From Escherichia coli (lineage in GTDB: Bacteria; Pseudomonadota; Gammaproteobacteria; Enterobacterales; Enterobacteriaceae), in NCBI RefSeq assembly GCF_044324875.1, contig NZ_CP172185.1: a stretch of 64,000 nt of DNA; one strand, 5' to 3'. Position 1 is the stretch's first letter, and each line of letters begins with the position of its first letter. Position numbers: made by a program. This document shows positions 42,001 through 42,275 of the stretch, piece after piece.

Positions 42001-42275
42001 TAAATATTTTCTCTTATCCACTCCACCACTTGTTGATAGAGCGGTATTTGTGACGACTTACTCAATGATTTCATGGCGCGCACCTGAACATTTACAGTTG
42101 TCTATGGACAATCATGGACAACTTCAAGCGTATAGTAGGTGAACAGGCGAAAAAGAGGATCGAAGCGTCTCACATTTTAGGGGACTAAATCGTGATCAAA
42201 AAAATGTGACGTGAGTCGATATTTGGCAGAAGTCTACTGCGCCGTCAGGAAATAACGGCGCGTTGGGAGGTGTTA

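Follow-up and report, generated by a model that had tools for sequence, protein, structure and literature searches.

A PTS gene cluster between nikR and yhhJ

The window, as the term is used here, is the whole 64-kb stretch of Escherichia coli DNA that was analysed. It carries a co-directional gene cluster on the minus strand, lying between nikR (42273-42674, minus strand) and yhhJ. RefSeq annotation was taken from strain 118UI, to which the window is 100% identical over the 401 bp tested. Read in the direction of transcription, the cluster comprises:

41328..42074, minus strand: GntR/HutC-family regulator gene (248 aa, WP_001322918.1; Pfam and RefSeq annotation)
40830-41303, minus strand: PTS IIA (PTS_EIIA_2; Pfam/NCBIfam)
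40552-40833, minus strand: PTS IIB (Pfam/NCBIfam)
39117-40475, minus strand: PTS IIC, Gat family (EIIC-GAT; Pfam/NCBIfam)
37616-39124, minus strand: FGGY-family kinase (Pfam/NCBIfam)
37357-37626, minus strand: HPr (Pfam/NCBIfam)
36475-37326, minus strand: class II aldolase (Pfam/NCBIfam)

The regulator combines a GntR wHTH domain (PF00392, E = 1.5e-15) with a UTRA domain (PF07702, E = 1.2e-25; both Pfam) and is the first of the co-directional genes, as expected from an earlier note on this DNA, which had described a HutC/GntR-type regulator heading a PTS operon. It is the presumed binder of the element described below, and the structural genes (36475..41303, minus strand) are presumed to be under the control of that element. 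The closest characterised relative with a solved structure is the repressor NagR/YvoA (E = 1e-20, full-length alignment). Moreover, the effector domain of the regulator differs by one substitution over residues 79-248 (window 41328-41840) from PDB 3HFI, a 'putative regulator'; this entry represents the solved effector domain of the present protein, with no function attached.

The element upstream of the regulator gene

The earlier note had pointed to a palindrome, TTGTC-tatg-GACAA, followed by a further TGGACAA half-site, directly upstream of the regulator gene. Both are present exactly as claimed in sequence and coordinates, and the palindrome ends 23 nt (CTGTAAATGTTCAGGTGCGCGCC) before the annotated ATG (42074, minus strand) of the GntR+UTRA regulator. 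The parts of the element are:

42098..42111, minus strand: core palindrome, 14 bp (plus strand TTGTCTATGGACAA, that is TTGTC-TATG-GACAA; gene strand TTGTCCATAGACAA)
42114..42121, minus strand: promoter-proximal auxiliary box (gene strand TTGTCCAT; plus-strand 8-mer ATGGACAA)
42085..42091, minus strand: possible third box ATGTTCA (tentative), 20 bp downstream of the left half-site of the palindrome

On the plus strand the context reads acagTTGTCTATGGACAAtcATGGACAActtc, with tc between the palindrome and ATGGACAA, and the extra TGGACAA copy occupies 42115-42121. Within the palindrome, 6 bp lie between the half-sites TTGT and ACAA, and its 14 bp are a candidate site for one regulator dimer. The auxiliary box repeats the left half of the palindrome in direct orientation, exactly 10 bp, or one helical turn, upstream. 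Read on the minus strand from 42121 to 42098, the whole 24-bp element is thus TTGTCCAT-GA-TTGTCCATAGACAA. We also considered the auxiliary box as one half of a second 14-bp palindrome and rejected this, there being no correctly spaced ACAA partner on either side. These observations refine the original proposal, in that the functional unit would be 24 bp (possibly about 40 bp) rather than 14 bp.

The palindrome is of little weight when taken alone. For the exact pattern TTGTCNNNNGACAA there is a single occurrence where 0.07 would be expected, but perfect 5-N4-5 palindromes are over-represented across the whole window, with 90 found against 62.7 ± 8.0 in mononucleotide shuffles, and such abundance means that a palindrome by itself is no evidence. 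The composite of a palindrome and a direct 7-mer copy within 14 bp has one instance in the window (expected 0.04) and was present in 8/200 shuffles. The palindrome alone is therefore barely beyond chance, and conservation is the decisive support.

Conservation across orthologous loci

Regulator homologues were gathered and 24 of them aligned. The locus set comprised 49 loci, one per species, from Enterobacterales (regulator identity 65-98%) and Firmicutes (50-59%), and the Salmonella enterica locus was added to it separately. A motif search upstream of orthologous operons had been suggested in the earlier note, with lack of binding and of conservation in orthologous promoters named as grounds for dismissing the palindrome. 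The search recovered the element upstream of practically every operon, in different genera and phyla, and its distance to the start codon and to the -10 was fixed. Its 24-bp consensus, TTGTnCAT-NN-TTGTmyATAGAcrA, is nearly invariant in front of essentially all orthologous regulators whilst the flanking promoter DNA has diverged.

Where the regulators are 83-92% identical (about 18 distinct loci), the 24-mer has at most 3 mismatches to the consensus TTGTACATGATTGTCTATAGACAA and always starts at -47 from the ATG; a further 8 loci from Escherichia and close relatives carry the window's own site and stand outside this count. The Salmonella orthologue, which adjoins the uhp genes, carries TTGTACATGATTGTCTATAGACAA, and the perfect 7+7 palindrome TTGTCTATAGACAA is found in Salmonella and several other genera. 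At 65-72% regulator identity (Serratia, Raoultella, Erwinia, Buttiauxella and others; group B), the site reads TTGTkCATAsTyGTAyAyAGAyGA and lies at -45 to -49. Its right arm has decayed to GAyGA, so that the site is just weakly palindromic in this group. The element is present even where the regulator is just 50-59% identical. Selenomonas and Centipeda have ATGTACATAGTTGTATATAGACAA, and Anaeromonas, Enterococcus larvae, Enterococcus sp. BWR-S5 and E. canintestini retain the 24-mer together with extra boxes at 10-bp steps. In E. larvae, Enterococcus sp. BWR-S5 and Anaeromonas the spacing is, as in the window, 10 and then 20 bp. Six other enterococci have TTGTACA-type boxes, four to five in number and at spacings of 10 or 20 bp, directly after a TTTACA-17-TACAAT promoter. 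The auxiliary-box consensus TTGTnCAT recurs in all Enterobacterales sites and in Firmicutes.

The arrangement at loci L039-L044 (Enterococcus raffinosus, avium, malodoratus, pallens and others) can be described further. Here the boxes lie about 100 nt upstream of the regulator, share a single orientation and exact 10-/20-bp steps, and span the leader from the -10 to the ribosome-binding site, making an array much longer than the enterobacterial one.

Within an alignment of 13 non-redundant enterobacterial upstream regions, representing genera or lineages, mean pairwise identity was:

Upstream (auxiliary) box: 0.93
Palindrome: 0.94
-35 spacer: 0.44
Discriminator: 0.57
-10: 0.66
First 35 nt of the CDS: 0.78

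The extra half-site on the promoter side of the palindrome is therefore as conserved as the palindrome. A 17-nt stretch directly before the ATG (ATGTTCAGGTGCGCGCC, 42075-42091) has a pairwise identity of 0.94, against the value of 0.78 for the start of the CDS. This stretch holds both the Shine-Dalgarno AGGTG (42081-42085) and the operator-like ATGTTCA, which abuts or overlaps it and is helically in phase with the other boxes; it may serve in translation or as a third contact for the regulator.

Gene content is shared along with the element. The regulator, IIA, IIB, IIC, FGGY kinase and aldolase genes occur together in all full-length loci, a class from which L022 is excluded since its sequence stops within the regulator gene.

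A weight matrix and second sites in split clusters

A position weight matrix was built from 16 unique sites, all upstream of regulators. The window site scores 33.0 bits and is the sole match of at least 12 bits in the 64 kb on both strands; the best score among 30 shuffles was 16.3 bits. Across the fetched loci (about 0.7 Mb, both strands), matches above 23 bits occur at the expected promoter positions alone. Weaker matches (12-23 bits) overlap the expected sites in a shifted register or on the reverse strand, apart from one 12.8-bit match in L052.

In 16 clusters the genes are split into an IIA-IIB-IIC-kinase-dehydrogenase unit and a regulator-aldolase unit. These clusters carry a second site of 27-32 bits upstream of the IIA gene, outside the training set, with the sequence TTGAACATrGTTGTACATAGACAA; it follows a -10 by 10 nt and has a good CRP site upstream. 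The IIA-upstream site is the only one in Pantoea sp. BAV 3049. The second sites thus indicate that the motif marks the promoters of this cluster, whichever gene leads. In the split clusters (L023-L037 and L050: Raoultella, Erwinia, Serratia, Buttiauxella and others) each unit has its own CRP site and operator-type element.

Promoter context

A scan for sigma-70 promoters and terminators between 41300 and 42800 called no promoter on the gene strand and revealed no -35 consensus there. The -10 was therefore placed from conservation in the alignments. The lack of a -35 consensus is as expected for a CRP-dependent promoter. The predicted promoter features are:

42132..42137, minus strand: predicted -10, TACTAT (TAnnnT conserved in 15 aligned upstream regions)
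42159..42174, minus strand: proximal CRP-like site TGTGAgacgctTCGAT, with the TGTGA half placed 21 nt upstream of the -10 hexamer
42205..42220, plus strand: distal CRP-like site TGTGAcgtgagTCGAT (alignment A2)

From this -10, transcription would start near 42124-42126, which would place the 24-bp operator at about +4 to +27. In the proximal CRP-like site the left half is perfect and the right half has 2/5 matches, and its centre falls at about -41.5 from the predicted start; in alignment A2 G118, T119, G120 and A121 of the left half are invariant and T117 is nearly so. The distal site has one degenerate half in E. coli, whereas most other genera (for example K. oxytoca, ATGTGATGTTCATCACAT) carry a perfect TGTGA-N6-TCACA there. 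The presence of two CRP-like sites in front of the operon, 46 bp from each other, suggests catabolite control, possibly weakened in E. coli. Between them lies a TGATC box (42194-42198, minus strand) with 91% pairwise identity across genera, which is neither a -35, a CRP half-site nor an operator box.

The element begins 10 nt after the conserved -10 in E. coli and in the group-B PTS promoters, 6 nt after the -10 in the group-B (65-72%) regulator promoters, and about 4 nt after the TTTACA-17-TACAAT promoter in enterococci. Judged by the predicted -10 elements, these positions are of the repressor type. Similarly, a site 23-46 nt upstream of the regulator ATG is compatible with repression if transcription starts where predicted.

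Distribution and variation within E. coli, and the Salmonella island

The cluster is accessory in E. coli. It was found in 1637/5426 complete genomes (~30%), always on the chromosome and between nikR and yhhJ, with O157:H7 and extraintestinal (ExPEC) strains among the carriers; in different genera it occupies different chromosomal contexts. The segment that runs from the -10 to the ATG (66 bp) is at least 99% identical in 1629 of the 1637 genomes. For the neighbouring 132 bp of the same intergenic region, identity is at least 99% in 337 genomes, 95-99% in 558 and 90-95% in 742.

The Salmonella locus in our set is likely to be STM3779-STM3785, given its gene content and uhp neighbours. This island has been described as encoding a regulator and an aldolase alongside a complete PTS whose specificity is unknown, and was reported to have been gained by subspecies I and to be repressed by H-NS (PMC3604774). 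Expression of STM3784 has been reported to depend on ArcA. The island has the same genes as the window (GntR regulator, IIA, IIB, IIC-Gat, FGGY kinase, aldolase and HPr), its regulator is 82% identical, and it shares the 24-bp element. It differs in adjoining uhpABCT rather than nikR and yhhJ and in the reversed order of the HPr and aldolase genes. The literature on STM3779-STM3785 and on the nikR/yhhJ/PTS locus reports no operator or substrate, and a literature search found no published binding, expression or start-site reports for the regulator or promoter. We also considered whether the locus is the 'vpe' carbohydrate permease locus of uropathogenic E. coli and rejected this, since vpe is located on a different island, next to the deoK operon (PMC5382810).

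Comparison with characterised GntR-family operators

The family consensus NyGT-Nx-ACNy is recognisable in the element, in which GT and AC are symmetric (GTCCATAGAC) with x = 6, as compared with 4 in most HutC members. The usual HutC core is GTMTAKAC (GT-N4-AC), from which direct-repeat binders such as FarR and NagQ depart as exceptions (PMC4494728). The earlier note's view of the palindrome as typical of HutC/GntR operators thus holds for the general GntR form and for half-site geometry of the NagR kind, but not for the GT...AC spacing, which is 6 nt and not the usual 4.

The closest parallel is with the dre sites of NagR (YvoA) in B. subtilis and DasR in Streptomyces. These regulators share the wHTH and UTRA/chorismate-lyase fold with the present protein, their native palindromes are likewise imperfect, and their sites overlap promoters of sugar-uptake and catabolic operons, including that of their own regulator gene. 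Their inducers are sugar phosphates, and by analogy the same is presumed here. Crystal structures of NagR with DNA show the winged helices reading GTGG and CCAC half-sites six nucleotides apart, with Arg38, Arg48 and the wing Gly69 contacting bases, and the native sites as imperfect palindromes (PMC4333415). The half-sites here are also of 4 bp and 6 bp apart (TTGT-N6-ACAA against GTGG-N6-CCAC), and Arg48 and Gly69 correspond to R49 and G70, both invariant in the 24 homologues. Moreover, the recognition-helix segment VSRGT is invariant among the aligned regulators, and its longer form VSRGTVKKA is kept in 22/24. However, the half-sites here are of another sequence and have a single G each, and the equivalent of Arg38 is Tyr39, or Phe or Asn in orthologues. 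The NagR contact scheme is therefore not simply transferable; we rejected a direct transfer of base contacts because, although a guanine is present at -5, its reader in NagR, Arg38, is a tyrosine here. A further difference from NagR and DasR is the equally conserved direct-repeat box 10 bp upstream.

In E. coli, MngR controls a PTS operon. The direct-repeat cores quoted for FarR/MngR, NagQ and NanR are TGTATTAWTT, TGGTATT and TGGTATAW (PMC4494728). These systems resemble the present one in a similar core, in head-to-tail repeats and in the control of sugar uptake operons. They differ in that the enterobacterial site here has an inverted half-site, AGACAA, which forms the palindrome, making it a hybrid of direct repeat and palindrome instead of a pure direct-repeat operator. 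Extra half-sites beside a palindrome have statistical support for FadR, HutC and YtrA sites, and in four HutC orthologous groups extra boxes were attributed by the authors to the binding of additional subunits (PMC4494728; Suvorova, Korostelev & Gelfand 2015). Those sites, like ours, have one further half-site on one side at a distance of about one helical turn. Their extra boxes score on average about half as high as the true half-sites, whereas here the box is as conserved as the palindrome (0.93 vs 0.94) and in Firmicutes it is expanded to 4-5 phased boxes. In the parts of the supplement to that study that were searched for STM3785 and for the site sequences, the orthologous group was not found.

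A probable autoregulated operator as the best explanation

Taken together, these data are best explained if the 24-bp element at 42098-42121 is the autoregulated operator of the adjacent HutC-type GntR repressor, with repression relieved by a sugar phosphate; we put the probability of this reading at roughly 85%. Under the proposed mechanism, a regulator dimer joined via its UTRA domains would set its winged helices on TTGT and ACAA of the palindrome, and the direct-repeat box one turn upstream would add contacts on the same face of the DNA, probably through a second dimer. Contacts may likewise be added by the ATGTTCA box, which lies in phase near the ribosome-binding site. The bound regulator would then cover about +4 to +27 and block open-complex formation or promoter escape at a CRP-dependent promoter. 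As the regulator gene is first in the operon, its own expression (negative autoregulation) and that of the IIA, IIB, IIC, FGGY kinase, HPr and aldolase genes would be repressed together. Uptake of the PTS substrate would yield a phosphorylated intermediate which, by binding UTRA, could displace the DNA-binding domains as in NagR, and the operon would be derepressed by its inducer if cAMP-CRP were present.

A more elaborate variant of the operator is possible, though doubtful. Here the palindrome would be the strongest part of a longer array, on which a higher-order oligomer of the regulator occupies three to five TTGTnyA boxes of the same face. Equally tentative is the idea that this array proceeds in 10-/20-bp steps from the transcription start to the ribosome-binding site. 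The E. coli boxes under this scheme lie at 42121, 42111 and 42091, with one inverted half-site, and related arrays with 10-/20-bp steps have been kept from Firmicutes to enterobacteria. To our knowledge, solved HutC complexes show a single symmetric dimer. If true, the array would imply a hybrid of direct-repeat and palindromic binding with a GT-N6-AC core that is structurally undescribed for HutC proteins.

Other explanations of the same 24 bp have to be weighed against the operator of the adjacent regulator. It is improbable that the site belongs to another factor, be it a global regulator or a HutC-type paralogue encoded elsewhere. Comparative genomics yields co-occurrence alone and not the identity of the binder, enterobacteria have several HutC-family paralogues with GT/AC-type sites, and the H-NS repression reported for the Salmonella island (PMC3604774) means that other proteins act there. 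Nevertheless, the element follows the regulator orthogroup from Gammaproteobacteria to Bacilli, Clostridia and Negativicutes, lineages without common global regulators, whilst the VSRGT segment of the recognition helix stays invariant and neither the rest of the 64-kb window nor the flanking DNA of 51 loci contains the motif. Chance, or conservation by mere recent horizontal spread of a functionless island, is hardly credible as the origin of the element. It could draw on the 90 palindromes of the window, on the accessory status of the locus (1637/5426 genomes) and on its varying contexts among genera; moreover, with a horizontally mobile cluster, close orthologues owe some of their similarity to shared ancestry and not to selection. 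Yet in the same alignments the boxes are 93-94% identical where adjacent promoter DNA reaches 44-57%, and this contrast with flanking sequence argues against shared ancestry as the main cause. The persistence of the element at 50-59% regulator identity, the independent second copy in split clusters and an E. coli segment far less polymorphic than its neighbour point the same way, and on such comparative grounds this reading is effectively refuted.

The element could instead work at the RNA level, as a 5′ leader hairpin (UUGUC...GACAA) acting on mRNA stability, translation or antitermination, which we consider very unlikely. A start near 42125 would put the whole element in the transcript, where a fold pairing GUUGUCC with AGACAAC (-16.2 kcal/mol) is possible, but its stability is ordinary for the composition (z = -1.75; 10/200 shuffles equal). 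Several changes among orthologues (ACAA to ACGA or ATGA, and TTGT to TCGT along with ACGA) would leave G-U or G-C pairing intact, and such covariation cannot separate a DNA palindrome from a hairpin. Against a hairpin stand the equally conserved upstream box and the 10-/20-bp phased repeats of Firmicutes, which form no common hairpin, and the ten-bp phasing as such, which indicates a single face of a DNA duplex. At the regulator promoters of the 65-72% group, where it begins 6 nt after the -10, the element would be partly untranscribed. Finally, an Rfam search of 41800-42500 on both strands gave no family match at E <= 1, and neither an antiterminator protein gene nor a downstream terminator is present.

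In sugar operons the textbook arrangement is a CRP-dependent promoter overlapped by the site of a local repressor. The general picture is thus unchanged, the element being a real but ordinary regulatory feature whose use lies in de-orphaning the operon. Together with the matrix it offers a concrete candidate operator for an uncharacterised local regulator of an accessory PTS/kinase/aldolase pathway. It may serve as the basis of a reporter for the inducing sugar, for defining the regulon in any genome, and as a probe of the extra half-site in HutC-type operators.

Minor observations concern the surroundings of the cluster and its likely substrate. Just past the nikR stop, at 42240-42260, lies a 6-bp GC-rich hairpin (CGCCGT...ACGGCG) without a T-run. 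It was not called by the terminator scan, so that transcription of the nik operon could continue into the PTS promoter region. In L025, the one split locus checked in this respect (1912-1935, 5777-6811), there is a gene for a Zn-dependent alcohol/polyol dehydrogenase that is missing in E. coli, which hints at a polyol substrate in split clusters and a ketose in E. coli.
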